Of a DNA stretch of 64,000 nt, positions 18,561 to 49,861 are shown one piece after another. Every line of letters begins with the position of its first letter. The stretch's first letter is position 1. Both the position numbers and the translations under genes were made by a program. The notes beneath the pieces are model-generated. The model saw only the letters and a list, made by a program, of their open reading frames with translations, had not been told where the DNA came from and searched no databases. The DNA is from Psammoneis japonica (Eukaryota): contig QPGO01000007.1 in assembly GCA_008632985.1 (NCBI GenBank), forward strand, positions 434,001 through 498,000, in the 5' to 3' direction.

Positions 18561-18762
18561 TTCTTCGAATTTGAGCAATTGACTTGGACCAAACAGCCCA
18601 TGCGTTCGAAAACACGAGGGACTCTCTGCTGAAATGGATGGCGAAAGACCTGGAAAGACCGATCCACCGACCGACCGACCGACCGGACACGAAAAAGTCT
18701 GTAAAAACGAAACCACGCACTCAGTGGTCAGAAAGGTCCATCAAGAAAAATGCACAATTTCA

Positions 18763-19007
18763 AAATTTCAAAACAGCATGCGGGGTGCGATTGACAGCCG
18801 CATCAACTTATCACGCACCGCCAATCATCCTTTGAAACATTCTGACTTGGACTCCCCAGGCTTTGACGCGCTGGAGTCACAAAGGAATGAAAATTTCAAA
18901 GTGGTATGCGGGGTGCGATTGACAGCTGCATCAACCAATCACAACACCGCCAATCATCCTTTGAAACATTCTGACTTGGACTCCCCAGGCTTTGACGCCC
19001 TGGAGTC
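18763..19007 (+). repeat. Tandem direct repeat, 2 x ~128 bp
   Basis: TGCGGGGTGCGATTGACAGC...CCAATCATCCTTTGAAACATTCTGACTTGGACTCCCCAGGCTTTGACGC at 18779 and 18907. Confidence 0.9.
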
Positions 19008-19053
19008 TCATATTTTTACAACATCTCAGGAAGAATTGCAGCACAGCAACAAA

Positions 19054-19229
19054 ATGGTCTTTGGATTCTCTTCATCTTCGCCTTGAACGCTGTTGGTTTC
19101 ACCACTGGTGGTGTTGCCGCCGGGTCCATCGCAGCCTGTATCCACTCGATGATTGGAAATGTGGCCTCAGGAAGCCTGTTTGCTCTGCTTCAAAGCATAG
19201 GTGCGACTGGGATGGCGTTGTTTGTCTAG
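19054..19229 (+). CDS. Small IFI6/IFI27 (Ifi-6-16/ISG12) family membrane protein (1-bp indel just after ATG)
   Basis: Frame from 19056 reads GLWILFIFALNAVGFTTGGVAAGSIAACIHSMIGNVASGSLFALLQSIGATG, matching the ISG12 GFT..G.AAGS.AA...GSL.A.LQS.GA pattern; absent from the ORF track. Confidence 0.75.
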
Positions 19230-24147: not shown

Positions 24148-25093
24148 ATGAGGGGGTGGACAACGTTTTTGATTTTGGGAAGTGTTGGGGCTTGGGTGCC
24201 TCCCACAACACGAACAGCAACAACCTGCTCTCACCACGCCGTTTTCGCAACGCATCTTTCCGCGCATGAAGTACATTGGCTGGATCAGGAAGCAAGAGAA
24301 GAATGCGAGCGCGAAGGTATTCCTCTTGGAGAATCCATTGCTGAAGGCGAGGTGGTTGTATGCCTACCCAACGTTGCCAGCCCAGACGATTGTAACAGAC
24401 TGTTTGAGGCCGGTCTCCAGGCGTGTGAGGGACGAGGCTCTGCAGCTCGTGGACGAAGTCGGTTTAGTGTTTCGGATCCAACGGCCTTTTCAAACGACGT
24501 GGTATTGGTATGCGAAGAAATACTGCTTAAAGTGATGGACTATTTGGACGAAAACATTCCCTCCGTGTACGAGACGCTATTCTTGCCTGGCGAACATTGG
24601 GCAGAGTGGCAACCTCTGAACGCACAGCTCGAGCAACCAACAGTACCGCCAGCTGATCATTTGACAGAAACCTGCGACAGTCTCCGAGAGCTTTACATGA
24701 TGGGCGAACTAGAATGGTCTGAAGGAGAACCAGCAATCAATATATATGAGACTAAGGGGTATTTCGGGTGTCACAAAGATCATCTCGCTCTCACAGTGTT
24801 GATCCCCTTGACATCACCAGATACGTTTTCGGGTGGTGGAACCGGCTTTTGGAAGGGAAATCGTGATGTAGATGAAAATCCAAAGGATCCCCTACGATTG
24901 TACTGAAACCTCCACCTGGATCAGCCCTTATCTTTGGGGGTGATGTCACACACTCCGGAATGCCGGTGGAAGACGGACTTCGCTCCGTTTTGTCTGTTCG
25001 TTTAGCACACGAACACCAGCTTCATCGGAGGATCGTCTCCATGGAATGTTAGCTCCTCCAAAGACAAGCGCAAACTTTAAGGGGACCATCTAG
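24148..25093 (+). CDS. 2OG-Fe(II) dioxygenase (prolyl-4-hydroxylase-like), probable plastid presequence; indels near 24890 and 24990
   Basis: HKD, LTVLIPL, FSGGGTGFW, downstream GSALIFGGDVTHSG...R; signal peptide ending VGA-W. The second copy at ~47095 shows the extra base that keeps frame. Confidence 0.8.
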
Positions 25094-25223
25094 TATTAAA
25101 TAAAAAAGAAATTGATGGATCGAACGTACTTGTAGCATTCACATCACCGCATGCGTGTTGATGCTATCCGTTTCCCCTGTTGCTCTGATTCTAGTTTCTT
25201 TTCTGCCGTTGAGGCTAGCTTTT

Positions 25224-26136
25224 CTAACGTTTCAACATTCGTAGACCGGTTGTTTTGTCACGTTCTTGCGCTGTCATGGGTGATGGCAAACCCGGAAATA
25301 AGAATGCGCAAACGTCAGTGTCAAGAAAGCGATGCGCATACATGGATATTTCTCGCTTTGAAGTGTCACATATCGTGTCTTTATGTTTCTGGTAAAGTTC
25401 TCCCGCAACGTCAAAACGCCCAACTATCAAAAGCTGAATAATTTGGGCCTTCTTTTCGCTACGTCTGCTCTTTTCGTATGCACCAAGAATTCACTCTCTG
25501 CGTCGGTCGGTTCTGGTTGAACGAGGGGTTTCCAAAGGGAAAATCCGATCCAAGGTCGTTCTTTAAGTCCCTTGAAGCTAACCACGCCTACTGGAGCTGG
25601 TGCTTGGGAGGAATAGATGATATCTTGAAATTCTCGATGCCCCGACGAGTCGTTTCTTTGATATCATCATCCGGCCGAACTACCAAAAAGGCAATCATCT
25701 CTTTTTTCGCCGTTGAGGTTGCTCCAGAGATATACGAAACAGCGAATCGTGGATCTATCCCAAAGTATTCCTGATCACGCCTTCTCTGTCTGTTGAGAGT
25801 TGCCGTTGGAATTCCGTCGCGAAAGATGCCAGGGATGTTCCTAATGTCAGTACCATAAAACACCAACGCAAGTACTCTTCCAGCGTCCAAGGATCGCAGC
25901 GCCCGGACGAATCGGTCATATACCATGGTTCCTGCGTACTCATCAGCGGTGACTTGCAACGTAGCACCAGTCAAACCCGCACTCTCGGCACAGTCCACGA
26001 AAGCGCGAGATTCGCAGGCTGCCTTCAAATCGTCAAAATTTAGTTCAGATGTATCATCCTTTAGCATCTTGGCAACGTAGCTAGCATAGAAAAAGGGAAT
26101 TCGTTCCCTCTTCAGAGCGTATACACAATTGCTCAT
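25224..26136 (-). CDS. PARP/ADP-ribosyltransferase-like protein, copy A (frameshift ~25590)
   Basis: ALVFYGT..RNIPGIFRDG...EYFG....AVSY...MIAFLV...HQ(I/L)P resembles the PARP catalytic [H/Y]GT...YF...Y scaffold. Confidence 0.55.
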
Positions 26137-26646
26137 TCTCGCTTCCTTCTGAACGGTTCCAGCTTGTTGACGGCAATCTGTCGGTGTCAAAATACTGTAG
26201 AAGATAGAAGATCATCGCTGTCGCTATCGCTACGACTTCAAACTTCAAACGCGATGTGCGATGTCTTCAGTCGTGCGTACTGCGTACGCGTTGCGCGAGC
26301 TGAAAAAAGAGGTCGTCACACCAGGGTAGACTACGGCAGTCAACGACACACAAAAAACGAGGTACTGCGGGCGGAGCGATGACAAGTGAAAGCCATCGAT
26401 TGCATTTTCATCGCACTCAAACCAACTTAAAGGATCAGCTTGACTGAATTTTGTTGAATCTCGTGCAATGCAGCGTCAAGGAGGGAGACACATTGTCCTC
26501 AGTAAAAGTGATCCTCCGTGTTCACAATCCTCCTGCGCAACTGCAAGAAGGAAAGAAAGCCGCTCAACATCCCAGACAAGTCGTCAGCACTCACAACATT
26601 GCCTTGCTCATCTGAATTAAATCACTGGTCATTCTTCCAAACCATG

Positions 26647-27581
26647 TCAATTGCCTGATGATGGCAATGCAGAAGTGCCAGATTCATGTGCACAGCTCCA
26701 TTCTGATGACTGCGGCCACCGCCATCTCCATCGAATCATCACGCGTGGCGCTTGTCGTCATGATTCAAATGGATCTCATCACATTGCATCTGCACCAGAC
26801 CACAGTTTGGAAATTTTTGTGCTTTTGAAAGTGTGCAGCATCCCATCCCAGGGCTGTCCCTGACAAGGCTTGACCGAGGGAACCATGGCAAACGAGAAGA
26901 GCACACTGGCCAGCATTCTTCTTTTCCCTCTTGACTCGGGACTCACGTTCAAGTTGATGGATTTCTCCCCAAATGCTGTCAGTTGCCTCCCACAGTTCTG
27001 ACAGAGGTTGATGTTTCCTTGGCTTGTCACCTGCATCATCATCAACTCCTCTGCTGTTCGAGTGATCATTCACAACAAATCGCTCTGGGCCACTGTCACC
27101 AACTTCCCAGGCTTGGAACGAGTCGGGGAACTGTTGTTCTGGTTCTTTCTTGTTGCATCCCTCCCATTTGCACAGACAAATTTCTCACAAATCTGCCAAC
27201 ACAATTTTGTTCAATGGAAGCTCACAATGCTTCTTCACAATCTCCAGCATTTGGCGAGCTCGAGTCAGTGGTGAAATGCACACGGCGCCAATCTTGTCGA
27301 TGTTTCGCAGGGCTTGCCGAGCAGCCTCTACAGCCTGAGTCTTTCCCAGATCTGTCAGTCTTGAAAAATCCAAAGACCCTTGAACAAACCCACCGGCATC
27401 TGCATCGGTTTCTCTGTGATGAAGGATTTAAAAGGAACGAGGCATTTCATTGGTGGCAGATTTCACACTGGGAGAAATAGAAAATTTGGCAAAAGCACCA
27501 GAGTTTGCTCTGTCCGGTCTTGAAAGGGTTTCCAACAAAACGCAAATGTGGGAGCTGCTTTGGTTGCTGCGCCAACCCAAC
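26647..27581 (-). pseudogene. Hypermutated, 5'-truncated copy of the histidine-phosphatase gene
   Basis: Colinear with 48807-49730, with systematic CG>TG/CA and TA>TG/CA changes; RHGE region (CGTCACGGAGAA) reads CATCACAGAGAA. Confidence 0.9.
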
Positions 27582-28095
27582 AGCACTCATCATCTTTCAA
27601 CTTTCAACCACCATGACTGATGGGAGTTGAGCTTGATGTCTTCATGATGCAGGCACTCTGTGCAGGGGTGCGGTGTGTCAGCCTTTGCATGTGAGCTCTT
27701 GGTCACTTCAGTGTGAAGATCTGTTGCTCCAGCAAGTCTCAATTGCTGTCCGGTTTGCTGTGGTTTTGTGAATGACCAGCCAGCTTTGTTCTGGTCTCAT
27801 CCATTCTGATCTCCTTTGTGGACCACACTGAAGACGTGTCTTTTTGGTCCCTCTTTTCTCACAAGGCCTTTGGGGCCTCTTCTCACTTCTTGTGGATTTT
27901 CCTGTTTGTGAGGATCAGATCACCTTGACAGCTTGGCAGCTGTTCAGACCTGCATGCTTTAGACTGTCGTTGCTTGTTGCCCCAGCTCATGCTGACATTG
28001 TCTGGCTCATTTCTGTGGTTGTGAGCCCAAGTGTCGTCATTGCTTTGAATTGAATCTGTTGAATTGACAAGAAGCAAAACCTCTGATTTTGTCAA

Positions 28096-31000
28096 ATGAG
28101 CAATCATTCAGCAGGATCAAGCAATCCTTTGTTTGGGGATGCAGACCCTGAACTGTCAAAGAATGAAACATCAGAGGACTCAAGTGAGGAGTCTGAGGAA
28201 AAATCTCAAGGACACTTCTCGGCCTCTCAAGGAGGGATCAAGCAATGCCACTGCAGTGGTTGTTCCTCAAGTTGGCGGGGTTGTTGACAATGTCACAGGG
28301 GCTGGCAGTCCACAAGTTGTGTTGATCCCCACACTGTGGTGCATCATCCACATTGTCAACATCCGATTTCATTCTGTCACTCTGCAACAATTGCACATGT
28401 CATGCTGTCAGAAAGGTTTGCAGTCTAAGATTGACACCAACAAGGACAGCAAGGTGACTATCGCCATTGGTCAGACCAACTCTGTTGACCAGCATCTTCT
28501 CATGAGCAGCATGGATTTGGTGTTCCATGTCCAGAGGAGAGATCCAAGGACAAGGGCACTTGAAGAGTGGAATGTTTCAATGAACTGAGGTTCATTTGAC
28601 CTTCAAGAAGTTAAAGACCATGTTCAATGCTTGCTCTCAATGGGTGATCAATGTGATGAGCAGAAGCTGCAATGGCCAGGAGAGTTCTTTCTTGACTTGA
28701 TCGGGATTGCTCCACTTGGTGACATCCAGAAGTGTGCCAATGGACCTGTGCATGGGCCTGTTGTCTTTAAGCTCATCATGAACGAATTGCATTCATCAAC
28801 TGTGTCGGCTCTCCACTTGGTGTTGGACAAGCTCAAGGCTGTGAAACTCAAGGAAGAACCAGGTGAAACATTGAGAGCTGCACTTCGAAGGCAGTTGAAC
28901 TTTGCAGGCATCTTAAAGGTCATCACAAGTTGCCCAAAGATGCCCCTTCGATCCTTTGCAGTGGAATCGTGACATCGACTGTCAAGCCATTCCGGATTCA
29001 GTTTGTGGCTGTCTTCAATGAAGAGTTGATGTGTGTGGCAAACTTGATGCATGTGCCAACAAGTCACACACCAGTTTGGTTGATCAAAAAGAGTGGATGC
29101 CTTTGAATCAAAGCAAGTCCAGTTGCATCACATTTCTAAATTGTGCAGACCATTGCATTTGCCACAAGTGTGGTCAATGAGGTCACATCCATCCCAACTG
29201 CCCTCAGATTGCTGACAACAACAGTGATCCTGGATGTGGCAGTTTACGTGGCAAAGGTGTTGGTGGTCAATGCGGTGGATGTGAAGACAATTGTGGACCA
29301 GGATGTGAAGGTTGGGGTGATGATCACACTCCTTGGCCACGTCAAACTCCAAGAGGGACCCTCACAGGATTCTCCTCCAAAATGTAGAGAATTTCACATG
29401 CAAGTCTCCAATGGTGCAACCAAGCATTGGTGCAGCAGATGTGGTTGTTGGACCAATCACACTGCTGCCACCAATCACCAAGCTGCCGATGCCAATGCTC
29501 AGAGCACTGCTGCCACTCAAGACCAATTTGAATGCCGTGCGTTGAATGCTGGCAAGTGCCATGTTGCTTGGGACCAGTCCATGCAAGATTCTAGCACTGT
29601 TTCTGATTCTCAAGATGGTGCTTTGGCCAGGAACACATTGAATTGGATCTTTGTGGGTTGTGCCTCAGTGCACAACTTGTCAAACTGGTGGGCCAGTGGA
29701 TTGTTGGTTTGCTTTTCATAAAGGGCCCTGCTCTCTTTAAAACCAATTGTTGGAGGGAAACCAACATTAAAAAAGACTTGGATCAAGTGCCGTTGGAAGT
29801 GCACCCAGAAGTCATGTGTGTTTTGTTGGCACACATGATGTCCATGTGGTCTTTTGCAATGCTCTGCCACATGACTCATGGGCATCATCCTCACTTGTTC
29901 CTGCAAACACCAGGATTTGTTCAGAGGGATGTTGAGACACTCAAGAAAAAAAAAAACACAAGATCCTGAAGTTTTGTCCAAGCAACAATTGTTCCAGAAG
30001 ACTCAACAAACAACATTTTGTTCAATGTTCTGTCCTGAACTTGTTCATGTGTTGGTGGTTGTTTTGACATTTGTTGGGATTCATCAAGCACTGTGGCCAA
30101 GGTCTTCCAAGCAACATCACATGACTCTTCAAGATGAATCAGTTTGCGACATCACAAACCAAGATTGGATCTTCTGACTTCAAACATTGTGTTGCACATG
30201 CTCACGTGCCATTTTGTGAACATTGACTTTTGCAAGAACAGATTGATCATCTTCCAATGTCATTCTCATCTCCTTGTGACAAGCAATTTGAGGTTCTTTT
30301 TGATTCTGGAGCAAATGTCACTTTTGCTTTTGACAAAGAAGATTTTGCACCTGGGGCATTCAAGCTGTTCAACATCACCTGCTGTTGGAGGTTATGTCAA
30401 CATCAAGGGCATGAGCGTTGTTGAGTGGATGGTGTGTTTGATGATGCTGGATGCAAACAACACATCTGCGCTGAGTGCCCCCACATCCTGACTTCTCCTG
30501 TGAAGTTGTTGAGTGTCACTTGTCATGGGCACAACAAGAATGGCAGTGGCTTGGGTTGCAGGCTCAATGTTGACACCTCAAAAGACCATGCTTTCTTTCA
30601 TTAGCATGGCAGTGGCGCCATTGCAATGCCTTGTCATGAAACCAACAGAGTGCCCATTGCAACAGGAAGGAATCCATTTTTGGCAGTGACCTGGAAGCAA
30701 AGCATCTGCACATGTGTGATGGACAAATTCAATCAAAATGTGTCATCAAAACAAAAGAGACTGTTGCAGTGGCATTTTTGCTTGGGTCATCTTGGCTTTG
30801 ATCATGTCAAGTGGTTAGCCAGGAAAGGACACCTTGGGCATGCTGCAAGAGACTGTTGGCTCTGCTGCTGTTGACAGTCCCAAGTGTGGCACATGTCAAC
30901 ATGGTTGAATGACTTGTCGTCCAACCAGAGCTGCACAAACTGAGAAGGTTCCCAGTTGGAATCAATCTCTCAATGTTCTTCATCCTGGACAAGTGGTTGC

Positions 31001-33915
31001 TGCAGACCAGCATGTGTCCTGCATTCAAGGTCATCCATTCAAATCTTGTGAGAAGACCAAAAAAGCAGACAAATGTGGTGGCAGAACTGTTTTTGTTGAT
31101 GTTGCCTCTGGCAAGGTGTCAGCATGTCATCAAGTTTCATCTAGCACTTTCAAGACCATCAAGAGCAAAATGGCTTTTGAGAGGGAGGCTGCTTCTGCTG
31201 GCATTTCCATTCAAGCTCGTCAATCAGATGACACAATTTTTGTGAGCAACAAATTCCTCGAGGAACTCAAGGAGAATGGTCAGGGTGGGAAGCTTGCTGG
31301 TGTTGGGGCACATCATCAGAACACCATTGCAGAGCAAGCAATTTGCAATGTTGCCAAAAGAGCCCACACTGTGATGCTCCATGCTGGAGTTTGGTGGCCA
31401 GATGCAGCAGAGATGGATTTGTGGCCCATGGCCATGAGTCATTCTGTCCATTTGTAGAACTTGACCCCATGAATGGATTTCAATGGATTGTGTCCCAAAG
31501 AAGTCTTCATGGGAGTGAAAGTTTCTTCAAGTTCAACCCTCACAAATTTGGCTGTTCTTTGGGGGATGCCCGACCTGCGTGTTGGACCCAACATTGCAAG
31601 ACAGCAAGAAAATGCCATGTTGGAAGGCCCAACGTTGTCACAGTCAGTTTGTGGGTTGTTTGCCTGTCCATGCAAGCAATGTTGGTTTGATCCAAAACCT
31701 CAAGAGTGGTTTGATGTTGCCCCAATTCCATGTTGTCTGTGACAACTGGTTTGAGATGGTTCATTCAGACAATGAGCGCAGGCCACCAAGGAATTGGTTG
31801 GACCTCCTCACCACTTCAAGACATTGTGTGGACACTGATGATGGTTTGGCATTGCCTCCGTCATTAAATGATTGGCTTGCTGCTGAAGAATTGAATGATT
31901 GGCATGTGCAACAGGAAGAGCAATGGAGGCAACAATGAGTGCAAGCATCAGAACCAATGAAACAGAGGGAGAGGATGCCTGGATCATCTTCTTAAGGACA
32001 ATCCAATGCTCCCAGATGGTTGAGTGTTCCACTTTCAAGCAATGTTTTGCTGGATCTTCCATTGTCTCTAGATTTTGTCCACAATGAAGTCACGCCTCCA
32101 AGCATTGAATCCCCTTTTGCTCCATCTGACATTGCAGAGGCTCAAGAGGAAGACTCCAGAGTTGCTGGGTCTCCAGAATTGCCATTGGTTGCCAACAATG
32201 ATGGCCATTTTCCCAAAGCTCTAGACAAGTTTTGGCTCCATTCTAGTTGCAGGACAGCAGAGTTTGTTGGAACACATGCAATGTTTGCTGACCTTGATGG
32301 TGGCAGTGTCAATTCTGTGCATCCATTGTCAGCATTTTTGTTGGATTCTGTTGCAAGTGAGAAGACTTGTGGTCCTGATGCTTCTTTGCACCATGAAGCA
32401 ATGGCAGCACCACACACAAAGAGTTCAAGAAAGCCATGCATTCCAAGATCAACAATTTGATGTGATGCAATTCATTCACTCTGGTGCTGCACAAGTTGGT
32501 GCCATCTGATGCCAATGTTCTGCATGGCACTTTGGCATTTAAGTTCAAGAGACACCCTGACAGATGTCTCAAGAAATTCAAAGCACAATTTTGGGTGCAA
32601 GGGAACCATCAACAAGAGGGGGTTGATTTCTTTGAGACTTGTGCTCCAGTGGTCCAGCAGAGTGCAGTTTGGTTGGCTCATGAGTCCCTTTGTGTGGCAT
32701 GGATTGGCATCTTGCCAAGCAGATCACTCTCTTGCTTTTGCTCAGACATTGAAAATGACACACACATTGAATTGCCCAAGCTCTTTGAGACAGAACACAA
32801 AGGAGACCATGCACTGAAGCTTGACAAGAGGTTGCATGGGTTGCATCAAGCCATGACTGCTTGGTTCCAGCATTTGCCCAAGGGTCTGGAAGAGGTTGGA
32901 TCACACTCCAGTGAGAGTGATCCTGTGTGTTGATGATTGTTTGTTCTTTGCAAAGGATCTCACAAAAATTGACAACACAACAAGTCAACTCAAGACAAAC
33001 AGATGCAAACTTGATGTTGAGGACAATGCAAGTTGTTTTCTTGGCATCAACATTGACAGAGAAAATGAGGCTGGGACCGTCAATCTCACTCAAAAGGGAC
33101 CTGTCGAGAAGATCATTGCTGCCATGAACATGGAGGGTTGTCACATGAAGGCTGCTCCAGCAAGCTCCACTCCATCAGCCACCAATGCTGACGGTCCTGA
33201 GTGAGTCAAATTGTGGAGCTGCACAAGTGTTTTTGGCATGATGCTCTGTTTGGCTTCCAATGCAAGTGGCCTGATGTCCAACATGCAGTCCACAGCTGTG
33301 CCAGTTCATGCACAATCCCAAGAAGAGCCACAAGAAAGTGGTCTGGGCATCTTCAAGGCACAAAGGACCACAGTGTGACTTTTGCTGTCTCTTGCAACTC
33401 AAGGTTGGATTGCCATTGCAGTGCAGTTCTTGCCAGACATTGGAGCTGCAAAGACCCACAAGATCCCACATGCATCAAAAGTCAGTCTGGTCATTTGTTG
33501 ACCATTGGCAGCAACCCATTGATTTGGGCTTCCAAGCTGCAGACCAAGGTTGCTTTGTCTGCACTTGAGGTGGAGCATGTTGCCCTGTCTCAGGTGATGA
33601 GAGTTCCACCACCCATGAAACGGCTCATCAAGGAGGTTGCCTCTTTGATGAGCATCAATTGGGACAACAAAAAGTTGTTCCATTCTGCCATTTTCAAGGA
33701 TGGCAAAACAGTGCTTTGGCCATGATGCTGAGGATGACTCCACATGCAAAACATGTTGGGATCAAGCATCACTTCTTCAAGTCTCACATTTTGAAACCTG
33801 GCTTTGTGATTCACACTCAGAAGATTGCCAGTGAAGAGCAGTGGGCAGATGTCTTGACTGAGGGTTCAGTGCAGGACAAGTTTGAGCATTTGCGGAAGAA
33901 GATCATGGGGTGGCA
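28096..33915 (+). mobile_element. Ty1/copia LTR retrotransposon (CoDi-like), dead and hypermutated; LTRs not found
   Basis: Copia domain order: gag (GPVVFKLIM...VKLKEEPGE; WCSRCGCWTNH ~29428), protease FDSGAN (~30298), GAG-pre-integrase WHFCLGHLGF (~30770), integrase (ADQHVS...FVDVASG...HHQN), RT (AFKFKR.PD, VDDCL ~32929), RNase H (WASKLQT.VALS..E.EHVALS...KKIMGW). Confidence 0.92.
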
Positions 33916-34214
33916 GGTTGTGGTGGATTCATTTTTTATGTTGATTCAAGTTCAAATGCATGTGTTGCATGTGAAAATGGGGCAATGGCAATCAGGCATG
34001 ACAACTGGGGTTGTTGCATCTTTGCATGTGGTTTTGCATCACTGAGTTGTTTTACAAAGTTTGCTCCTGCAAGAGGATGGGCTGGTTGGAAGAGGACAGA
34101 CCAGTTTTTCTTGCTCTGCAGGCTCTGAGCAAACCATGTGCATGCTGCACAGGTGAGGCAGTTGTTGTTCTTGCTGCATTGCAAGCACAGCATTGTGCGT
34201 TTCTTGAAGTTCCA

Positions 34215-35300
34215 CCAAGACAACAACTGGTCATTTTGTTGAGTTGAAGGACACCACAAAAAAAGACCTCCAGAAGACTGTTGTGCCAACCAACAAAACA
34301 GAAAGAAGAAGTCTGGCAGGGTTAGAAGGACAAAGCCAATTTTCAGTGATCTGGCACTGCTGCAGCAGATGAAGCTGACCAAGTGTTGCAGCAAGCCCAC
34401 TGAGATCCATCCCAGACCCAACATGAGTGTGCATCTTCAGACAGTTTCTCTCTGAAGTTAAGACTGCAGCACAAAGCATGCCTGCCTCAGAGTGTTTGGC
34501 AAAACAGCTGCTCAGATTGCACTGGCATGCACCTGCACATGGATGGTGCAGAAGACTTTGTCCAAGGCTTGCAACTCCAAGGAAAGGCAGAGGCTGATGA
34601 CTTGCCAATCAATGTCTTGAATGGCAAACAAAGGCTGCAGAGACATGTGCACAAAAACCATTCATGCCGATGCAGCTTCAGATCCCAGAGTTGGCGCAAA
34701 CAGCTGTGCTGCAAAGATTTTTTATTCTGCTGTCCTGCAGGAGCAGCATGACAACAGACTTGCATGCTCACACCCATTGGGAGAGGGTGATGATCAACAA
34801 AACCCAGGCAGCACAAATGCAAAGGTCTTTTTGCACTGGTTGCAGCCACTTCTTCTTTGTTTGTTGCACTTGGAGGTCTTCAAATTTTGTTGCACTTTCT
34901 TCACAAATTCTGCACTTTTGCAGACTGAGCCTGCATGTGGCATGCTCTTGGTTGGCCAGCATTGAAAGACAATGATGCCCCCACTGATGCTGCTCTCACT
35001 GAAGCACAAGCAAGGTTTGCCTTGGTGACAGTGGGCACATCAAGGCTGCCCATTGGCCATGCCATTCACAAGGAACAGCTGCTGCCTCTCTGTCTTGGCA
35101 GCTCTAAACTGAAGAGTGTGTTTCTGGACCAACATGCCTTTTGATCTTCCAACCAGATGTGGAAGCCATTGGGTGTTGGAGTTTGGCATGGACCAAATTA
35201 CAAAGAGCATTGCCAATCGTTGCACAAAGGGCTGCACTGCACAGAGCACAGAGGAGAGCTTGTTGATCCAAGCTGGTGACTCCTGTCTCAGCCAATTGTG
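34215..35300 (+). pseudogene. Hypermutated partial copy of the MYND gene (5' half plus upstream)
   Basis: AAAGACCTCCAGAAGAC, CCCAGACCCAACATGAGTGTG, GACATGTGCACAAAA and GCTCTCACTGAAGCACAAG align with 40410-41470. Confidence 0.85.
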
Positions 35301-35314
35301 TTCTTGTCAGTCAA

Positions 35315-35980
35315 ATTTGATGGAAAATCGGCTTCGCCAATTTTGTTTGTTTGTTTGTTTGATCATCAGAGAGAGAGAGAGAGAGAGAGAGAGACTTTCT
35401 AAGTGCACCCAAATGACCCACCATCAAGTGAACTGCAGAAATTGTGGAAAGGTGCAATGGCCAACCCTCTCTGCTCACAACCCCTCTCAAACCTTTGAAA
35501 CCATGCCTGACAATGCATCGGCCTTGACCGCATGATTGTCTGCTGCAGTCACTCTCACAACCTTGGAAATCTCCTTTCCTGCTGCACACTCCGAGTCTCC
35601 CATGCCCCCCAGTTTCGTCCCATTGGATTGCAAACATGGAGGCCACTGAGAGAGAGAGAGAGAGAGAGAGACAACAACTTGACTTGAATCGATTCAACCA
35701 ACCTGTCTGTCCTTCTTTGGATCTTTTTAACACAACAACGCCCACCGCACGACAACAACAACAGCCAGCTGCTGATGAAGCCACCGCAAAAGTCTCATTC
35801 TCCCAACTTCGGCCAATGTTGTTGTGCCTGCTGTTCACTGAAATGGTTGGACAAACATCCGATTGAGCAGCTCCACCTTAGCTGCTTGCATTGCCATTGT
35901 TTGTCACATTTGACGGAAAATTGGCTTTGCCAATTTTGATCATTTGAGAGAGAGAGAGAGAGAGACTTTCTAAGTGCACA
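35315..35980 (+). repeat. Duplicated ~70-90 bp unit containing (GA)n microsatellites
   Basis: ATTTGA.GGAAAAT.GGCTT.GCCAATTTT...(GA)nCTTTCTAAGTGCAC at ~35315-35410 and ~35908-35980; third (GA)n at ~35648. Confidence 0.8.
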
Positions 35981-37389
35981 AGCAGTGTGCATTGGCACAG
36001 CAACATGTTTGGTTTTTGGAGACAATGGCATTGCAGGGTCCAGGGCTCTTGGTGTGGCAAAAAAGGTCAATCATGATTCAGCTGCCCACTGCCAGAGTGT
36101 TGTGCAGCTGTCATTTGCAAAAGAGCCAGAGACAAGGTCTTGGTGAGAGTGCTGTGGCAAGCCTCCCAGGCAAACATTGTGGTGGTGGGGGGGGGGGGGG
36201 GGCAAGTGTTTGGAGAGCACAGCTTGGCAGCAAAAGAAGATGGACAAAAATGGCAGAGGTTGTTCTTGATGTGTGAGTCTGTGAGGTGCAAAGTGGTGGG
36301 TTGAAATGACAAGCACAAGCTGGTGGTGCACAAGAGAGCATTTCATGGATTGCTGGCTCCATGCACAACTTCTCTCTGCATGCCTCTTGTGGAAGGACAG
36401 ACAGAAGGGAAAAAGTGCGCTCACTTGGTGTGGTGCTGTTGTTGTTGAAATTGCCAGCAGGCAGCAGACCAGAAGAGATCATGCAAGCATGCTTGCACAT
36501 TGTCCATGCAGAGAGCATGTGTGGCTGCACACACCAGTGGGAGCACTGAAGACTTTTTGGGAGTTGCTGCAAAAGTTTGTTGCAGCACTTTTCAACAGCA
36601 GAGGCTCTTGCCATCAAGTGTGCATCACAAGATAAAAGAAACTGTGCTCATGCAAAAACATGGGCTGAGATGCTTGAGCACCACCCAGTGTTGCTTCTCC
36701 AGCCCACTTCAGCCAGGGCCATCATGCTGCAGAGGAAGTTGTGTCCTGCAGAAAAATGCAATTGTCAAAATCCAACTGCAACATGCCATGAAAGATCTCT
36801 GGCAAAGCTGAGTTAGAAGTGAGTTTGAAGGTGCAATGAAACAAGGCAACAGAAGCCCACAAAAACAATGTGGCAGTTGCTGCTGTCTTTCTCATCCCTG
36901 GCCAGAATTTTCATTGATGTTGACACAATCCCATGCAAAGAGCATTTTAAGTGAGTGCAAATGCATTGTCTTCAACACTTTGTGTGTCCTGAACAAACAG
37001 ATCATGCAAAAATGGGACAGGGCTGTGTTTGCCAATGTGGTTTGGCAAAAGCCTGTCAGCTTGCATGCAGCCTGGCTTGTGTCCTGTGTGACTGGGAGAA
37101 GAGTTCATTGCACAACACTCTGGACTGTCTCTCAGCTCCACCAGTCTGTTGCTGGGCATGCTTTTTCTCTGACCCTCTTGCACTGTGGTCGTCCTTGCTG
37201 GGCCACAGAGGGGCACTCTGCACAGCTCCTCCATCTGCTTCTCCTTCCCCTTTCCCTTTTTGCTGCCTTGCCACTCTTCCTCTCCTCCTTCTGTTGTGTG
37301 GTTTCATGTCTCCCTGCTGTTGGGTGGTGGCTCTCTGGCTGGAGATCCACATTGGGGTCTCAAGAATGAGCCAGAGACCCAAGTCTGGG

Positions 37390-37443
37390 TTCCCCAGATC
37401 TGGATCCCCAGCTGGAGGTCTGGTGTGCTCATGGCCTGCACCA

Positions 37444-37474
<31 letters not shown>

Positions 37475-37925
37475 AGAGCTTGAGCAAGAGTGCACTGGAC
37501 ACTGGAAGAAGAGAGTCAGAGAGTGACAGAGGGCAATCAACCTGTTGATTGTTTGGCGCAGATTTGAGACCAATGAGGGGCAGCGGTCTGTGCTCCCCCC
37601 TTGTTTGAGTGGGGGGTTGTCCTCCAAGATCTGCCATGCCTCTGCTTCACTTGTCAAGATTGTGGAGGCAGTGTGCAAGTTTGTGAGCACTGTTCAAACT
37701 GCAGCAAGCTCATTCCTTTCTTTCTTCAATGTTGTGCTTCATGTTGGTGAGTTTAGAGAGTGAGAGTTTTTGCTTGCAGCCCACCAGCCCCGATTCCCCC
37801 AGATCGGGATCCCTGGCTTGAGGTCTGATGCTCATGGCCTGCACCACAACCAACCAGAGAGCTTGAGCAAGAGTGCATCAGGCACTAAAATGAGAGAGTC
37901 AGAGATCAACAGAGGGCAATCGACC
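37390..37925 (+). repeat. Dispersed direct repeat (~140 bp x2) with (CCAG)n tract
   Basis: TTCCCCAGATC.GGATCCC...GCTCATGGCCTGCACCAC...AGAGAGCTTGAGCAAGAGTGCA...AGAGGGCAATC.ACC at ~37390-37543 and ~37794-37925. Confidence 0.8.
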
Positions 37926-38135
37926 CACAAAGATCTTGGATCTTCCGACTGAGAACGGCGTTGCCGTGTGCCGTGCGTCTGTTGCGTTGCGCGTTGCGCT
38001 GCTGCGCGTGCCGGTGCAGCACACGGTGCGTGCGGCACGGTGCGGCATCTTTGCGGCGCACCTTGTCTTTGCGGCGCAATCTGCCTGGAGACCTTGCTCC
38101 CAGCTGCCGAATCGAAAAATTTGCGACATTGCAAA

Positions 38136-39828
38136 ATGGACAGCTTGCCGAGTTCATTTTTGGCATGCCAGTGCAAAGTTGTGTAGATCTGTGCATACAA
38201 GTTTCTACGTTGGTTTGTGCTGAAATGGCAGTTGGACCCATCAGCTCATTCAAATTTGTACAGCGACCCACCCGTGCATGCCGCACTCACAATGGTGATG
38301 ATACGACGGCATTGTTTGCACTCTGACGCTGTCTTGCCACATCGCATCTCCCTTGCCACGGAGTTTTAGAACATCACTGACAACTGGTTCAATAAAATGA
38401 CCGGTCGTGACAGAGTTGCAGGGGTTTTGTTTCGCCATGAAAAGACGCCGTTGGACCCATCAACACGACGTATGTACAATGGTCGGTGTTGGAATTGTGA
38501 CGATGCATTGGCCCCATTTGAAGTGTCTTTAGCGGCATTGTGACGTTAGCATGCGGCATGGAAGACTCAGCCGTTCCCAATGTGGTGGCATGACGGTGGA
38601 GTTGGCTGGAGCCCAAGGAGGACTTGTCAACATGACGCACCGGTGCGACGTGCAATGGTTGGTGTTGGAATTGTGATGATGTGTTGGCCCCATTTGAAGT
38701 GTCTTTAGCGGCATTTTATGACGTTGGCATGCGGCATGGAACACTCAGCAGTTCCCAATGTGGTGGCATGACGGTGGAGTTGGCTGGAGCCCAAGGAGGA
38801 CTTGTCAACTTGACGCACCGGTGCGACGTGCAATGGTCGGTGTTGGAACTGTGACGATGTGTTGGCCCCATTTGAAGTGTCTTTAGTGGCATTTTATGAC
38901 GTCAGCATGCGGTGTGGAATGCTCAGCAGTTCCCAATGTGGTGGCATGACGGTGGAGTTAGCTGGAGCCCAAGGAGGACTTACCTTGAATGTGTTTCTGT
39001 GGATGCAAGAAAAGCAAATGACACATTGGCCCCATTGGAAGTTACTTGAGCAGCATTGTGGCAAACACAACCGGCACGGATAACTGAGAAGAGCTTAAAT
39101 TGGTGGCATGACAGTGAATTTAGCCTGAGCCCAAGGATGGCTGTCTCTGAAAATGTTGCTCTCTGTGGCAGGAACTGCGAGTGGTTGCTTTGTTGTCCTT
39201 TTCTCCATGCAGCAGCAGTTTAGATGGCTCTGCTTTGTGGGCACAAACAAGCAATGCTTCTGAAATGATCACTGGTTGTGGATGTTAACCAGTCACACGA
39301 CAAATCTATGACTGAAGTGGAAGTGCTGGAGCGTTGTCAAGTCGGCGGCATTGTCATCTTGTTGGACGAGCTGGAAGTCTCGTCATTTGCTCTTCTGCTG
39401 CAGAGAACATTGGTGGAATTGAACAACAACTTGATAGAGAAGACATCAGCAATGTTGGTGGAGGAGTTGGCTGTGGTTGTGATCTGAGAATGATTCAAAG
39501 TGGGCGACGCAGACGACCTGACAACACGCAAACAGCTGTGCAGTCCATTGAAGCTACTGACCAGCTTTGAAGGCGATTTATTTTGTCTGTTGATAGACCA
39601 ATCATCTATATGCTATGTGACAATAACGTGTTGGCATTTTTACTCAGCATTCACAGTGTATTAGCAACGCCATTAGCTCTGTCGACACCTCTTCGTGCTT
39701 CGTGTTATTCTCGTGTTGGAGCTCGCAGAGTTCGTGATTTTCGTACGCATGTATGAGAAACTGTCGAATGTAGAAACATATTGAATTTCTACTGGCATAC
39801 CAAAAATGAAACTCGGCAAGCTGTCCAT
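38136..39828. mobile_element. Putative non-autonomous DNA transposon (~1.7 kb) with ~37-bp terminal inverted repeats
   Basis: ATGGACAGCTTGCCGAGTTCATTTTTGGCATGCCAGT (38136-38172) is the near-perfect reverse complement of ACTGGCATACCAAAAATGAAACTCGGCAAGCTGTCCAT (39791-39828); no clear TSD. Confidence 0.7.
38470..39140 (+). repeat. Tandem repeat, ~177-bp unit, 3 good copies + 1 degenerate
   Basis: CAATGGT.GGTGTTGGAA at 38477, 38653, 38831; GGTGGCATGAC.GTG.A.TT.GC..GAGCCCAAGGA recurs four times. Confidence 0.92.
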
Positions 39829-40479
39829 AATTCCGAATCCCCGCACAATCATCGCGCGGCGAGTCGAGAAACGACCCTTGTCACCCTCCAAGATCGTCTT
39901 TGCGACGCGGCCAACATCCTCTGGTGCAATTCAAGGTGCAGGCGTTCTTTCTACTTCGATTAAGAAAAGATATGATGCACGAGAAATGACAAGAAATCCT
40001 TATTTTCAAAGGAAATTGCCTTCTCGTGACAGCAACTCATGCCGACGCATCGCAAGATTTCAACAAAAAATGACCTTTTTGGATGATTACACCGCCTTTC
40101 CTCACAAACAAAACGTCATATAGCTCTTAATAATGATAATAATCTGATTGGTTTGTTATTTCATGTCACTTACAGACCTTCGGTTGTCGAAACAGTAGCA
40201 TTTGCTCATTTGAAGCGAAAAATGAAGCACTCAGAGACCTCGCACGTGCTTTCATCGTGAAAAAATTCGAGCTATTTGTTTTTATAAATTAATTTGCGAT
40301 TCGCAAATTTTGCGTTTCAGTAGCCAGGCACCAGCAGGCAGTTTGTGAGTGGTCGCAGTGTCCATTGTCGCAGGTTTGAAGTTCGCAAATACCATAGTAG
40401 TTCGTGTTGTTGACAACAACCGACCAGATTGTGGATTCGAAGGACATTAATCTTCCCGAAAGACCTCCAGAGGACCACC

Positions 40480-42159
40480 ATGCCGACCAACAAAAAGAAA
40501 AAGTCCGGCAGCAAAAGGGGCAAAGCAAATTTTCAGCGATCCGCCACAGTGGTATTTGGAGAGACAGAAGTTAGGTCGGAACTACCCGAGTGTTACGGCG
40601 AACCCGCTGAGATCCGTCCTAGACCCAACATGAGTGTGTCTTCCGAAAGATTCTCTGAAATGAAGTCTGCAGTACAAAACATGCCTGCTTCAGAACGTTC
40701 CGCAACAGCCGCTCGGATTGCACTAGCATACGATTACATGGATGATGTGGAAGACTTAGTCCGAAGCCTGCAAGTCCGAGGAATGGCAGAGACCGACGAC
40801 TTACCGATCGACGTCTTGATTGCGAATAAAGATTACATGGACATGTGCACAAAACTCATTCACGCCAATGCAATTTCAGATCATAGAGTTGGCATCAACA
40901 GCTACATTGCAAAGTTTTTTCCACTGCCATCTTGTTGGAGCCACGTGACAGACTTGCATCCGTTGGGAGGTGAGAATCAAACAAACTTGGGCAATGTAAC
41001 TGCAAAGGCCTTTGTTGCACTGCTTGCGACCGCGTCTTTGTTGATGGTGACTGGGAGTCTTCAACAAATGTCACTGCGCATTGTTCACGAACTCCACATT
41101 CACGCAGACCGAGGCGACGACTGGCTTGATTGGTCAGTGTTGAAGGACAACGATGCATGCGAAATTGCTCTCACTGAAGCGCAAGTGAGGTTTGCGCTAG
41201 CGACTGTGGGTATCAAGGTAGCCCGTCGACTGTACCGTCAACGGGAAGAACGACAGTTTTATCCTGGCAGCCCTAAACTGAAGAGTGCGTTCTTGCTTGA
41301 TACCATTGAAAGACTTGCTCAAGACCAATGTACCTTTGGACCTTCCTTCCAGATGGAAGCGGTTGGGTGTTGGAATTTGGCGTGGGCCGCATCACAAAGT
41401 GTCGCCAAGCGCGGTGTTCATCCGCTCGAGGGAGCGGCAGAGTGTTTGTACCAAATGCGGCGTTGCATGGAGCTCGCTGATTCAGAAGAGAACGACTTTC
41501 TGAGGGCAGAAGCACGCATTGATGCTGCAATGTGTTTGGTTTTGGGAGGCGATGGTATTGTAGGGTACAAGGTTCTCGGTGGCGAAAAAGGTCAATCGCA
41601 GCGCAACTATCGATCGCTGAAGAACCAGAGACGAAACCTTGGAGAGAGCACTATAGCAAACGACCTTCTTCTTGGATTTAAAGTAGGCGGGGATACGAAG
41701 GAGATCCGTTTAGCAAGTATGGAGTATGAAAAGTGTCGAATCAATAAGGGAATTCCATCTACAACATTGGAGGCGGGCGAAAGCCTTCTAGTTGCTTGGT
41801 GGGAGGTCAACAGGTTGTGGAATGAGGCTATTTTGGGGCCTTACGACTCAATCAAACAATGGGGTCACGAGTGCTTTGTCTTTGGCGAAGCCGCTGGTTG
41901 GGATGTTGTTGTTTCCTTTTTGGAGAAGACTCGCAATTACGCAAGAGGAATGTATGCCAACGCACCCAATCCACCTGGACTTCCAGGCAAACGTGACAAG
42001 GGGGGTGAGTACTCGGAGAGTATAACTTGTGCCACCTGCCGAAAGATGGACAAAAATAACAGAACTTGTTCTCAATGTAAGTCGGTGACCTATTGTTCAC
42101 GCGATTGCCAAGTGGCGGACTGGAAAAAGCATAAGCTGGTGTGCAAGTCTGTCTTGTAG
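40480..42159 (+). CDS. MYND zinc-finger protein (C-terminal zf-MYND)
   Basis: Intact ORF ending CATC...CSQCKSVTYCSRDCQVADWKKHKLVC; basic N-terminus (KKKKSGSKR). Confidence 0.88.
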   Translation: MPTNKKKKSGSKRGKANFQRSATVVFGETEVRSELPECYGEPAEIRPRPNMSVSSERFSEMKSAVQNMPASERSATAARIALAYDYMDDVEDLVRSLQVRGMAETDDLPIDVLIANKDYMDMCTKLIHANAISDHRVGINSYIAKFFPLPSCWSHVTDLHPLGGENQTNLGNVTAKAFVALLATASLLMVTGSLQQMSLRIVHELHIHADRGDDWLDWSVLKDNDACEIALTEAQVRFALATVGIKVARRLYRQREERQFYPGSPKLKSAFLLDTIERLAQDQCTFGPSFQMEAVGCWNLAWAASQSVAKRGVHPLEGAAECLYQMRRCMELADSEENDFLRAEARIDAAMCLVLGGDGIVGYKVLGGEKGQSQRNYRSLKNQRRNLGESTIANDLLLGFKVGGDTKEIRLASMEYEKCRINKGIPSTTLEAGESLLVAWWEVNRLWNEAILGPYDSIKQWGHECFVFGEAAGWDVVVSFLEKTRNYARGMYANAPNPPGLPGKRDKGGEYSESITCATCRKMDKNNRTCSQCKSVTYCSRDCQVADWKKHKLVCKSVL

Positions 42160-47023: not shown

Positions 47024-47310
47024 CAGATACGTTTTCGGGCGGTGGCACCGGCTTTTGGAAGGGAAATCGTAATGTAGATGAAAATCCAAAGGATCCTCCG
47101 ACGATTGTACTGAAAACCTCCACCTAGATCAGCCCTTATCTTTGGGGGGGATTGAGGATGTCACACAGTCTGGAATGCCGGTGGAAGACGGACTTCGCTC
47201 CGTCTTTGTCTGTTCGTTTAGCACACGAGCACCAGCTTCATCGGAGGATCGTCTCCATGGAATGCTCCTCCCAAAACAAGCGTAAACTTCAAGGGGGCAA
47301 TTTTTTAGTA
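47024..47310 (+). pseudogene. 3' fragment of the 2OG-Fe(II) oxygenase
   Basis: Only DTFSGGGTGFW onward is present, with extra indels. Confidence 0.8.
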
Positions 47311-47428
47311 CTTAAAAGAAATTGATGGATAGAAAGTACTTGTAGCTTTCACATCTATCACCGCATGCGTGTTGATGCTATCCGTTTCCCTTGCTGCTCT
47401 GATACTAGTTTCTTTTCTGCCGTTGAGA

Positions 47429-48339
47429 CTAGCTTTTCCAACGTTTTAGTTCGGCTGTTTTGTCACGTTCTTGCGCTGTCATGGGTGATGGCAAACCAGG
47501 AAATAAGAATGCGCAAACGCTTTTGTCGAGAAAGCGATGTCCGTACATGGATATTTCTCGCTTCGAAGCGTCACATATCGTGTCTTGATGTTGCTGGTAA
47601 ACTGCTCCCGCAACGTCAAAACGCCCAACTATCAAAGCTGGATAATTTCGTCCTTCTTTTTCGCCTCGTCTGCTCGTTCGAATACACCAAGAATTCACTC
47701 TCTGCGTCGATCGGTTCTGGTTGAACGAGGGGTTTCCAAAAGGACAATCCCATCGAAGTTCGCTTTTTAAGTCCCTTGAAGCTAACCACGCCTACTGGGA
47801 TCTGGTGCTCGGGAGGAATAGATGACACTTTGAAATTGTCAATGCCCCGACGAGTCGTTTCTTCGATATCATCATCCGGCCGAACTACCAAGAAGGCAAT
47901 CATCTCTTGCTCGCCCTTGAGATTGCTCCAGTGATATATAAAGCGGCGACTCGTGGATCTACCACAAAGTATTTCTGATCATGCCTTCCCTGTCTGTTGA
48001 GAGCTTCCGTTGGGATCCCGTCGCGAAAGATGCCAGGAATGTTCCTCATGTCCGTACCATAAAACACCAACGCAAGTACTCTTCCAGCGTCTAAGGATCG
48101 CAGCGCCCGGACGAATCGGCCATATACCATGGTTCCTGCGTACTCATCAGCGGTGATTCGAACGTACCACCAGTCAAACCTGACCTCTCAGCAAAGTCCA
48201 CAAAAGCGCGAGATTCGCAGGCAGCCTTCAAATCGTCAAAATTTACTTCAGATGTATCATCCTTTAGCATCTTGGCAACGTAGCTACCATAGAAGAAGGG
48301 AATTCGTTCCCTCTTCAGAGCGTATACACAATTGCTCAT
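47429..48339 (-). CDS. PARP/ADP-ribosyltransferase-like protein, copy B (several indels)
   Basis: ORF pieces 48091-48339, 47900-48130, 47616-47903, 47429-47698 match copy A. Confidence 0.5.
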
Positions 48340-48806
48340 TCTCGCTTCCTTCTGAACGGTTCCAGCTTGTTGACGGCAATCTGTCGGTGTTAAAATACTG
48401 TAGAAGATAGAAGATCATCGCTGTGCTACTGTACCGCCTACGACTTGCAAACTTCAAACGCGATGTCTTCAGTCGTGCGTTGCGCGAGCTGAAAAAAAAA
48501 GAGCTCGTAGCACCAGGGTACGATACAGAAAAAACATACAAGGAACTGCGGGAACGATGACAAGTGAAAGCCATCGATGCCTCATCGACTCAACAACTTA
48601 AAGGATCAGCTTGACTGGATTTTGTTGAATCTCGTACAATGCAGCGTCAAGGAGGGAGACACATTATTTTCACTTTGTCCTCCGCGTCCACAATCCTGCG
48701 CAACTGCAAGGAAAGAAAGCCGCTCAACATCCCAGACAAGTTGTTAGCGCTCACAAAATTGCCTTGCTCATCTGAATTAGATCACTGGTCATTCTTCCAA
48801 ATCATG

Positions 48807-49861
48807 TCAATTTCGTGACGACGGCAATGTAGAAGCGCCAGAGTCACGCGCACAGTTCCAGCCTGATGACTGTGGCCATCGCCATCTCCATCGAATCATC
48901 GCATGGCGCATATAGTCATCATTCGAACGAAGCTCGTCCCATTGTATCTGTACCAGACCACAATTCGGAAATTCGTGCTTTCGAAAGTATGTAGCATCCC
49001 ATCCCAGGGCTGTTCCTAACAAGGCTTGTCCGAGGGAACCATGGCAGACGAGAAGCGAACACTGCTGAGCATTCTTCTTCTCGCCCTTGAATCGGGACTC
49101 ACGTTCTAGCTTATGGATTTCTTCCCAAACACTGCCAGCTCTCTCCCATAGTTCTAATAGAGGTCGACGTTTCCTCGGCTTATCACCTGCATCATCTTTG
49201 CCTCCTATGCTTTTCGAGTGATCATTCACGACAAATCGATCTGGGTCACCAACTTCCCATGCATGGAACGAGTCGGGGTATTTTCGTTCTAGTTCTTTCT
49301 TGTTGCATCCCTCCCATTCGTACAGATCAATTTCTCGCAAATTTACCAACACAATTTCGTTTAACGGGAGCTCACAATGCTTCTTTACAATCTCCAGCGT
49401 TTCGCGAGCTCGAGTCAGTGGTGAAACGTACACGGTGCCAATTTCGTCGATGTTTCGCAGCGCTTGCCGAGCAGCCCTACAGCCTGAGTCTTTCCCAGAT
49501 CTGTCAGTCTTGAAAAATCAGAAGACCCTTGAATAAACCCACCAGCGTTTGCGTCGGTTTCTCCGTGACGAAGAATGTAAAAGGAATGAGGCATTCTGTC
49601 GGTGGGAGTTTCACACTGGGAGAGCTAGAAAATTTAGCAAAAGCACCAGAGTTTGCTCTATCCGGTTTTGAAAGGGTTGTCCAATGAAACGCAATCGTAG
49701 CAGCTGCTTTGGTTACTACACCGACCCAACGATCCAATAGACAATACCAGTTGACAATGTAATGGCAAACTGGTAGCATCAGCTCGGTCAACAGTCGAGT
49801 CAACAGGCAAACAACAATCAACAGGCGACAGACAAGCGCGGTCCGTCCGCCCGGCCACCAT
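48807..49861 (-). CDS. Histidine phosphatase / phosphoglycerate mutase family (indels in 5' part)
   Basis: ILRHGET at ~49557-49577, SPLTRARET, LREIDLYEWEG, LLVCHG, FPNCG; start approximate. Confidence 0.85.

Follow-up and report, generated by a model that had tools for sequence, protein, structure and literature searches.

The closest described system is found in the chlorarachniophyte Bigelowiella natans, in which integrated DNA from nucleocytoplasmic large DNA viruses (NCLDVs) and virophages undergoes hypermutation targeted to TpA dinucleotides (Mettrop et al., bioRxiv 10.64898/2026.01.13.699255). According to the preprint, two integrated viral regions were hypermutated about 1000-fold in mutation-accumulation lines, and the mutations were almost all A>G or T>C and all located at TpA, with TpA changing to TpG or CpA at a rate of ~6e-7 per site per generation. 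The long-term footprint was weaker, consisting of TpA-poor sequences rich in CpA and TpG on transposon-like genes, and the authors proposed, but did not show, that an ADAT2-like DNA adenine deaminase is responsible (bioRxiv 10.64898/2026.01.13.699255). In the diatom Phaeodactylum, DNA methylation is depleted and young transposons are de-repressed when DNMT5a is lost, and diatom DNMT4 is described in the same study as grouping with fungal RID and having no known function (Hoguin et al., 2023, PMC9998398). Our literature search recovered no report of TpA-directed mutation in diatoms, nor of decay resembling repeat-induced point mutation (RIP), and a wider search found targeted A:T-to-G:C mutation of genomic DNA only in the B. 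natans preprint (2026). Here, we analyzed 64,000 nucleotides from the diatom Psammoneis japonica (contig QPGO01000007.1, positions 434,001 to 498,000 of the forward strand; hereafter the window), in which three domains have lost nearly all CG and TA dinucleotides and TA loss reaches past CG loss. The window would extend targeted A:T-to-G:C mutation to the diatoms, a major and genetically tractable group of phytoplankton.

The G+C content is 47–48% throughout the window, and three stretches at about 11.0–11.5, 16.0–18.0 and 26.8–37.9 kb are nearly devoid of both CG and TA, with TG and CA at about twice expectation. Outside the domains, the observed-to-expected ratio (o/e) is 0.96 for CpG and about 0.58 (0.57–0.58) for TpA, as compared with a TpA o/e of 0.00–0.06 in the cores. 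In the largest core (26760–37920), TG and CA have o/e values of 1.72 and 1.86. The G+C content of the two larger cores (0.475–0.479, against 0.476 in normal sequence) is unchanged, as expected if CG>TG/CA and TA>TG/CA changes roughly cancel. The pattern disregards reading frames and breaks open reading frames (ORFs). The domains, their cores and the flanking zones in which TA is depleted and CG largely kept (halos) are as follows.

10880..11705: third, small depleted domain; core 10990–11475 with 0 CG (26 expected) and 0 TA (19 expected), halos of 110 bp and 230 bp
15825..19300: second depleted domain; core 16010–18045 with 15 CG (110 expected) and 4 TA (81 expected)
18045–19300: right halo of the second domain; 56 CG (68 expected), 13 TA (49.8 expected)
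26365..39600: largest CG/TA-depleted domain (13 kb)
26365..26760: left halo of the largest domain; 18 CG (21.4 expected), 3 TA (15.7 expected)
26760–37920: core of the largest domain; 88 CG (604 expected), 43 TA (442 expected)
37886..38184: halo flagged in the original prediction; 298-bp TA-free gap with 27 CG, CpG o/e 1.22
38181..39600: outer right halo; partial TA loss (28, 56.3 expected) and mild CG loss (54, 76.9 expected)

This footprint resembles that of B. natans in the replacement of TpA by TpG and CpA, in being A:T-to-G:C only, in affecting many-kilobase blocks of foreign or mobile DNA, and in the combination of low TpA with high CpA and TpG, which in B. natans is enriched on reverse-transcriptase and transposase genes; there, the hypermutation is interpreted as defence of the genome, in which a DNA adenine deaminase may act (bioRxiv 10.64898/2026.01.13.699255). 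However, the diatom host is a stramenopile rather than a chlorarachniophyte, and the footprint is saturated, the core TpA o/e being far below the value of 0.45 reported for their NCLDV region. Furthermore, a near-total loss of CpG coincides with the TpA loss in the window, whereas the words “CpG,” “diatom” and “stramenopile” occur 0 times in the preprint text. The B. natans evidence also consists of de novo mutations, whereas the evidence in P. japonica is a sequence footprint. The CpG loss itself recalls the DNMT5-methylated transposons of diatoms, in which transposable elements constitute the methylated compartment (PMC9998398) and CG>TG/CA changes are the expected footprint of 5-methylcytosine (5mC) deamination. 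Unlike such decay, for which methylation must be presumed here, the window also displays TpA loss, a flanking motif for TA and halos, which CpG decay leaves unexplained.

The CG and TA boundaries were placed by separate change-point fits at the six borders of the three domains. Plotted in this way, the two depletions do not start at the same position, and at every one of the six borders TA depletion extends further out than CG depletion (one-sided sign test p=0.016).

TA boundary 10880, CG boundary 10990: offset 110 bp
TA boundary 11705, CG boundary 11475: offset 230 bp
TA boundary 15825, CG boundary 16010: offset 185 bp
TA boundary 19300, CG boundary 18045: offset 1255 bp
TA boundary 26365, CG boundary 26760: offset 395 bp
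TA boundary 38180, CG boundary 37920: offset 260 bp

Past 38180, partial TA loss runs on to ~39600. Pooling the six inner halos (2,441 bp) gives, as a purely descriptive figure and not a test, 126 CG against 132 expected and 17 TA against 96.7 expected. The shape of the CG profile differs among borders: at 37920, CG jumps from 0–1 to 11–12 per 100 bp while TA remains at 0, and at the left border (26400–27600) CG falls gradually, with no abrupt step. Domain edges lie tens to hundreds of bases from the ends of flanking ORFs (15825 vs. 15779; 26365 vs. 26211).

The segment that drew attention to the halos, 37930–38180, was originally described as full of CG and free of TA, and our counts agree: its 251 bp contain 26 CG, 0 TA, 31 TG and 15 CA, where ~10.5 TA would be expected from composition and ~6 at the background TpA o/e. 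Of the 44,995 windows of 251 bp in normal sequence, only 13 lack TA, all of them from one locus (43968–44231). The single flagged stretch is thus unusual but not decisive, and it is the pattern across borders that carries weight; the segments 15830–16000 and 18050–18300, cited as further examples, are likewise TA-poor with CG present. The 43968–44231 locus is the sole TA-free stretch of more than 250 bp in normal sequence and holds overlapping ORFs on both strands. It was also suggested that the flagged stretch derives from motifs found elsewhere in the window after TA>TG/CA changes. The motif GTACCGTACG is present at 278 and 3601, with a variant, GTACCGTGCG, at 3651, and TA-less versions of it do occur at 37968 and, inverted, at 38029, which makes the proposed descent plausible without establishing it. 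A degenerate version of the 10-mer has five matches on both strands, compared with 0.4 expected under a first-order Markov model, and may represent a promoter element. The 10-mers are intergenic, and two of the three sites hold paired copies 50–61 bp apart.

The direction of change could be read from two internal duplications, which were exposed by recoding the window into purines and pyrimidines, a code that hides transitions. The segment 24841–27584 pairs with 47047–49733, and 34261–35225 pairs with 40458–41420; each pair combines a copy from a depleted domain with a normal copy that has an intact ORF (His_Phos_1 and zf-MYND, respectively). The left halo at 26365..26760 falls within the segment duplicated at 48540–48920.

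24841..27584: copy A of the 2.7-kb duplication; unmutated to the left of ~26365, mutated to the right
26768–27184, minus strand: His_Phos_1 pseudogene in copy A
47047..49733: copy B of the 2.7-kb duplication; unmutated, reference for the direction of mutation
48807–49517, minus strand: intact His_Phos_1 ORF in copy B
34261..35225, plus strand: zf-MYND pseudogene in the core of the largest domain
40414..42159, plus strand: intact zf-MYND ORF of 581 amino acids, unmutated paralog of 34261–35225

Within 26450–27620, the 64 CG of copy B correspond to 26 retained CG and 33 TG/CA in copy A, and its 38 TA to only 4 retained TA and 26 TG/CA, such that CG survived significantly better than TA (Fisher p=0.0014). 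An example is position 26461, with TCGTGCAATG in place of the TCGTACAATG of the intact paralog; CG is kept and TA lost, as had been noted. Changes in the reverse direction were rare (7 of 166 TG/CA to CG, none of 166 to TA), and to the left of the border the same duplicated segment kept 81 of 96 CG and 50 of 64 TA. In the zf-MYND pair, located deep in the core, 43 of 53 CG and 18 of 21 TA have become TG/CA, with a single site of each kept. The A:T>G:C changes are thus confined to TpA, as in B. natans, and the CG changes have the direction expected from 5mC deamination. At other C/G and A/T sites, transitions amount to 5–7% in the border pair, equal to the level outside the domain, and to 12–17% in the core pair, where 16 of 151 TG/CA have been swapped to the other form. 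This excess and the swaps fit a process of long duration that soon converts any newly arisen CG or TA to TG/CA. The pseudogenes bear indels and transversions as well. Since the duplicated segment continues across the border without a break and copy B is unmutated, the process follows position and is independent of duplication.

The surviving TA dinucleotides reveal a preferred target. In the cores, TA survival relative to normal sequence is 0.006 for RTAY (R, purine; Y, pyrimidine), 0.036 for RTAR, 0.066 for YTAY and 0.32 for YTAR, a range of ~50-fold (chi-square p=3e-16). The ranking is nearly the same in the inner halos, where the dose is lower (0.10, 0.16, 0.12 and 0.40), and identical in the outer halo (0.29, 0.35, 0.56 and 0.97). 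Newly created TA do not explain the excess of YTAR among the survivors because the flanks of core TG/CA are unbiased (51% pyrimidine). Furthermore, the outcomes in the paralogs depend on the flank: of 9 altered RTAR sites, 8 are now RCAR, and of 13 altered YTAY sites, 12 are now YTGY (Fisher p=2.4e-4). RTAY outcomes divide 6:6, and at 20 of the 22 one-sided sites the side altered is the one expected from the flanks. Taken together, the side of change and the survival ranking indicate that the recognized unit is 5'-RTA-3', that is, 5'-TAY-3' on the opposite strand. By comparison, CG survival varies merely from 0.10 to 0.21 among flank classes. No strand-coordinated runs of TG or CA outcomes were detected (runs tests, p=0.41–0.93; 59 and 61 events). 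The main text of the B. natans preprint gives no flank context beyond TpA (bioRxiv 10.64898/2026.01.13.699255).

The largest domain contains mobile DNA, including a decayed reverse transcriptase in which conserved tyrosine positions read histidine or cysteine.

32466..33201, plus strand: decayed Ty1/copia reverse transcriptase in two reading frames (RVT_2, E=2.4e-12 and 5.6e-8)
38136..39828: 1.69-kb element with ~42-nt terminal inverted repeats (TIRs), straddling the outer halo boundary
38477..38981: 178-bp tandem repeat (2.8 copies) within the TIR element

In a Pfam search of 82 ORFs from the depleted domains, only RVT_2 and His_Phos_1 rose above noise. Bins in the 13-kb domain have a summed contig depth of 15–50 times the flank value, suggestive of repeats. 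The two TA of the outer arm of the TIR element are CA and TG in the inner arm, and the CG shared by the arms are kept. This element (38136–39828) is non-autonomous and has a summed contig depth of 15–30 times that of single-copy flanks, and some contigs link 38137 to 39829 with 8 other letters in between. Inside the large core, an island at 35273–35900 has 13 CG and only 3 TA, and its summed contig depth is very high; it resembles a younger repeat, nested there, that has so far lost TA but kept CG. As in B. natans, mutation is found in blocks of mobile DNA, here the domain with the copia reverse transcriptase, but in P. japonica it also spills into host pseudogenes and flanks. A k-mer diagonal search of the purine/pyrimidine-coded window detected neither a long terminal repeat pair nor similarity among the three domains, and in the two smaller domains we found no terminal repeats, element structure or recognized element.

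Some relatives of the copia element in other datasets carry the same signature. An exhaustive protein search with the decayed reverse transcriptase recovered two relatives that lack tyrosine altogether (P0145 and P0163), whereas a word-indexed protein search with the mutated sequence gave no match. In an alignment, conserved tyrosine positions are histidine or cysteine in P0145, P0163 and the window copy, which is the protein footprint of TA>CA/TG. Among 80 related copia loci taken from metagenome contigs, four were depleted in both dinucleotides (CG/TA o/e of 0.20/0.04 in L014, 0.20/0.09 in L026, 0.11/0.25 in L016 and 0.10/0.18 in L069). Others were depleted in CG only (for example 0.06/0.68 in L005, 0.07/0.82 in L023, 0.11/0.50 in L017 and 0.20/0.65 in L043), and none of the 80 showed strong depletion of TA only. 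The surviving TA in the four doubly depleted loci are YTAR in 40 of 86 cases, compared with 20% in the remaining 76. A pair of metagenomic copies, 96.5% alike, has its TA loss in common and differs at 14 CG sites vs. 4 TA sites. The original prediction held that the two mutation classes are separable and that TpA loss, being faster or further-reaching, is not simply a by-product of CpG decay. Four lines of evidence now support it, since CpG and TpA loss differ in spatial limits, in survival in the border paralog, in flank dependence and among the metagenomic copia loci; the TpA loss is a process of its own. In B. natans, too, TpA hypermutation is described by itself (bioRxiv 10.64898/2026.01.13.699255).

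We consider it reasonably probable that the window contains three transposon-bearing and probably silenced islands that have been subject to two distinct mutation processes in situ. One of these would be the ordinary decay of methylated CpG to TpG/CpA, with methylation presumed. The other would be a targeted A:T-to-G:C transition at TpA with 5'-RTA-3' (5'-TAY-3' on the opposite strand) as its true target, changing the T:A pair that adjoins the purine:pyrimidine pair, so that RTAY may be attacked from either strand, RTAR and YTAY from a single strand, and YTAR only slowly. It is predicted to be governed by position in the domain rather than by duplication, to act site by site without strand-coordinated bursts, and to have continued over time, with TG and CA interconverting in the core. 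The halos may then reflect that this second process is far faster per site than CpG decay, such that DNA at an edge or newly entered into a domain would lose its TA first. Expressed as dose (minus log survival), the inner halos have received ~1.7 at TA and ~0.05 at CG, and the cores ~2 at CG with TA at the floor. A single gradient of exposure, with TA lost roughly 35 or more times as fast as CG, would account for every halo in the window. As for the enzyme, a DNA adenine deaminase preferring TAY would be the likeliest candidate class, as has been proposed for B. natans.

Several observations weigh against these interpretations. That the domains are silenced and methylated is something we infer from their letters, and the sequence cannot assign the mutated base pair to its A or its T. 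“TA first” is not universal, since L016 and L069 are more depleted in CG than in TA. The support intervals overlap at the border with boundaries at 26365 and 26760, the halos were cut from the same counts that describe them, and the 43968–44231 locus in normal sequence is also both TA-free and CG-rich (263 bp, 16 CG). The flagged 250 bp have no unmutated ortholog for comparison, and the outer right halo consists mostly of the TIR element with its tandem repeats, so that its composition may partly predate insertion. Finally, the public run used as a check on the assembly (X1, one sample) is possibly the source of the window assembly and hence not independent, and among the X1 matches listed no long piece spans 37930–38180. 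The reversed order in L016 and L069 suggests that the balance of the two processes varies by locus or host.

Some explanations could account for part of the data in other terms. The halos could be spatial in origin if recruitment of the TpA process covered more ground than CpG methylation does, as it might where promoters bordering the domains exclude only the CpG methyltransferase. We regard this as possible but rather doubtful: the abrupt CG step at 37920, the location of domain edges near ORF ends and the resemblance of the flagged stretch to a CpG-rich promoter with GTAC-type motifs speak for it, but a sufficiently high rate ratio yields the same counts without a wider footprint, CG declines gradually at the left border, and the near-identical metagenomic copies indicate that TA was lost earlier in time. 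The border paralog counts, the 35273–35900 island and the metagenomic pair all have TA going first, whereas the abrupt step and the gene-near edges would suit a wider footprint; we therefore favor “faster” over “further,” although the two are not distinguishable in the window. The mutated base is a separate question. Modified thymines in dinoflagellates and kinetoplastids favor TpA contexts, and 5-formyluracil mispairs with G. A TET/JBP-type oxidase could produce 5-hydroxymethyl- or 5-formyluracil from the T of RTA, leading to T>C changes, and the action of such enzymes on 5mC could tie both processes to 5-methylpyrimidines at pyrimidine–purine steps. The motif is equally readable as R-T-A, and both of the lost dinucleotides are self-complementary pyrimidine–purine steps that end as TG/CA. 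Nevertheless, we think a thymine origin unlikely, and a single enzyme sits poorly with the strong flank dependence of TA as compared with nearly none for CG and with the different spatial limits of the two losses.

Very unlikely, in our view, is a burst that detects duplications in the manner of RIP, for instance by means of DNMT4, which in diatoms groups with RID (PMC9998398). The likeness lies in abundant transitions in mobile DNA, in repeats and in duplicated segments of genes, with leakage into neighboring sequences and inactivation of genes. However, RIP turns CpA into TpA, which is destroyed here; it strikes both copies, whereas each paralog pair here has a single mutated member, and neither the right TIR arm nor the high-depth bins at 39809–40375 are mutated; and it leaves strand-coordinated runs, none of which were detected. 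The RIP-like reading is thus contradicted by dinucleotide, by copy and by strand. An artefact of sequencing or assembly, in which modified bases were miscalled as TG/CA, is highly improbable. Dense base modification can give systematic miscalls on some platforms, but contigs from X1 match the core in pieces of 856, 876, 1273, 1519 and 1251 bp with 0–1 differences at a depth of 61–69, compared with 60 in the normal flank, which argues against artefact, and strand-dependent miscalls would split the k-mer paths. Moreover, the pseudogenes bear changes other than transitions, and independently assembled metagenomes have an equal signature. We find it just as hard to credit that the pattern is the native composition of foreign DNA or results from selection against CG and TA. 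It is true that the core holds a retroelement and that CpG and UpA are avoided at the RNA level in viruses (PMC7879557), but precisely such directional changes separate the host pseudogenes from their intact paralogs, and the pattern ignores frames, destroys ORFs and has a boundary that crosses a duplicated host segment.

If a deaminase preferring TAY is indeed at work, the known adenosine deaminases offer a partial model. ADAR, ADAT2/3 and TadA all convert A to inosine, which is read as G, and prefer a 5' U or T, but in nature they are RNA enzymes. The native target of TadA is U-A-C, which resembles TAY, and ADAR favors a 3' G. The window has the 5' T of an ADAR-type target, but TAY sites are the earliest to disappear and TAR sites the most persistent. 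Any candidate enzyme will have to satisfy this RTA/TAY rule. With less confidence, we can envision that the diatoms and chlorarachniophytes share an old chromatin- or RNA-guided defence that deaminates adenine at TAY in genomic DNA and permanently rewrites silenced transposons, viruses and their flanks, independently of and faster than cytosine methylation; we hold this to be a tentative idea. If true, it would be an adenine-acting counterpart of fungal RIP and may be widespread in the SAR (stramenopiles, alveolates and Rhizaria) supergroup.

What is new here is the lineage, the coupling with CpG decay, the saturation, the spill into host DNA and the defined three-base target. The window presents the saturated end state of the process, and it distinguishes the TpA process from methylation-driven CpG decay by spatial extent or rate, and by dependence on the flanks. 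The loss of TA also has consequences for annotation, as it removes TAA and TAG stop codons and turns tyrosine codons into histidine or cysteine codons. Decayed elements consequently give long false ORFs and “tyrosine-free” proteins in public databases. Proteins with few or no tyrosines are a recognizable database artefact and a handle by which the process might be found in other organisms.

The intact genes of the window are long, nearly intron-free eukaryotic ORFs. They encode an alpha/beta hydrolase, a mitochondrial carrier, a Memo protein, an M18 aminopeptidase, ankyrin, SAC3, zf-MYND and histidine phosphatase proteins, and others. For the Memo protein, the best relatives with a name all come from diatoms (Attheya, Nitzschia, Bacillariaceae, Seminavis, Craspedostauros and Cylindrotheca), with 73% identity for the top match. 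The window is therefore part of a diatom nuclear chromosome, and the protein collection searched contains no closely related sequenced species. A 129-bp tandem repeat (18762–19007; 1.9 copies, 91% matches) lies within the right halo of the second domain. In the protein collections, P0274 is a long open “protein” of 1502 amino acids with 12 tyrosines that comes from a decayed copia element. The 2.7-kb duplication was followed by reciprocal decay: copy A keeps a 207-amino-acid ORF (25588–26211, minus strand, no Pfam family) that is split in copy B into three overlapping shorter ORFs (47616–48414), and the His_Phos_1 ORF, destroyed in copy A, is still intact in copy B.

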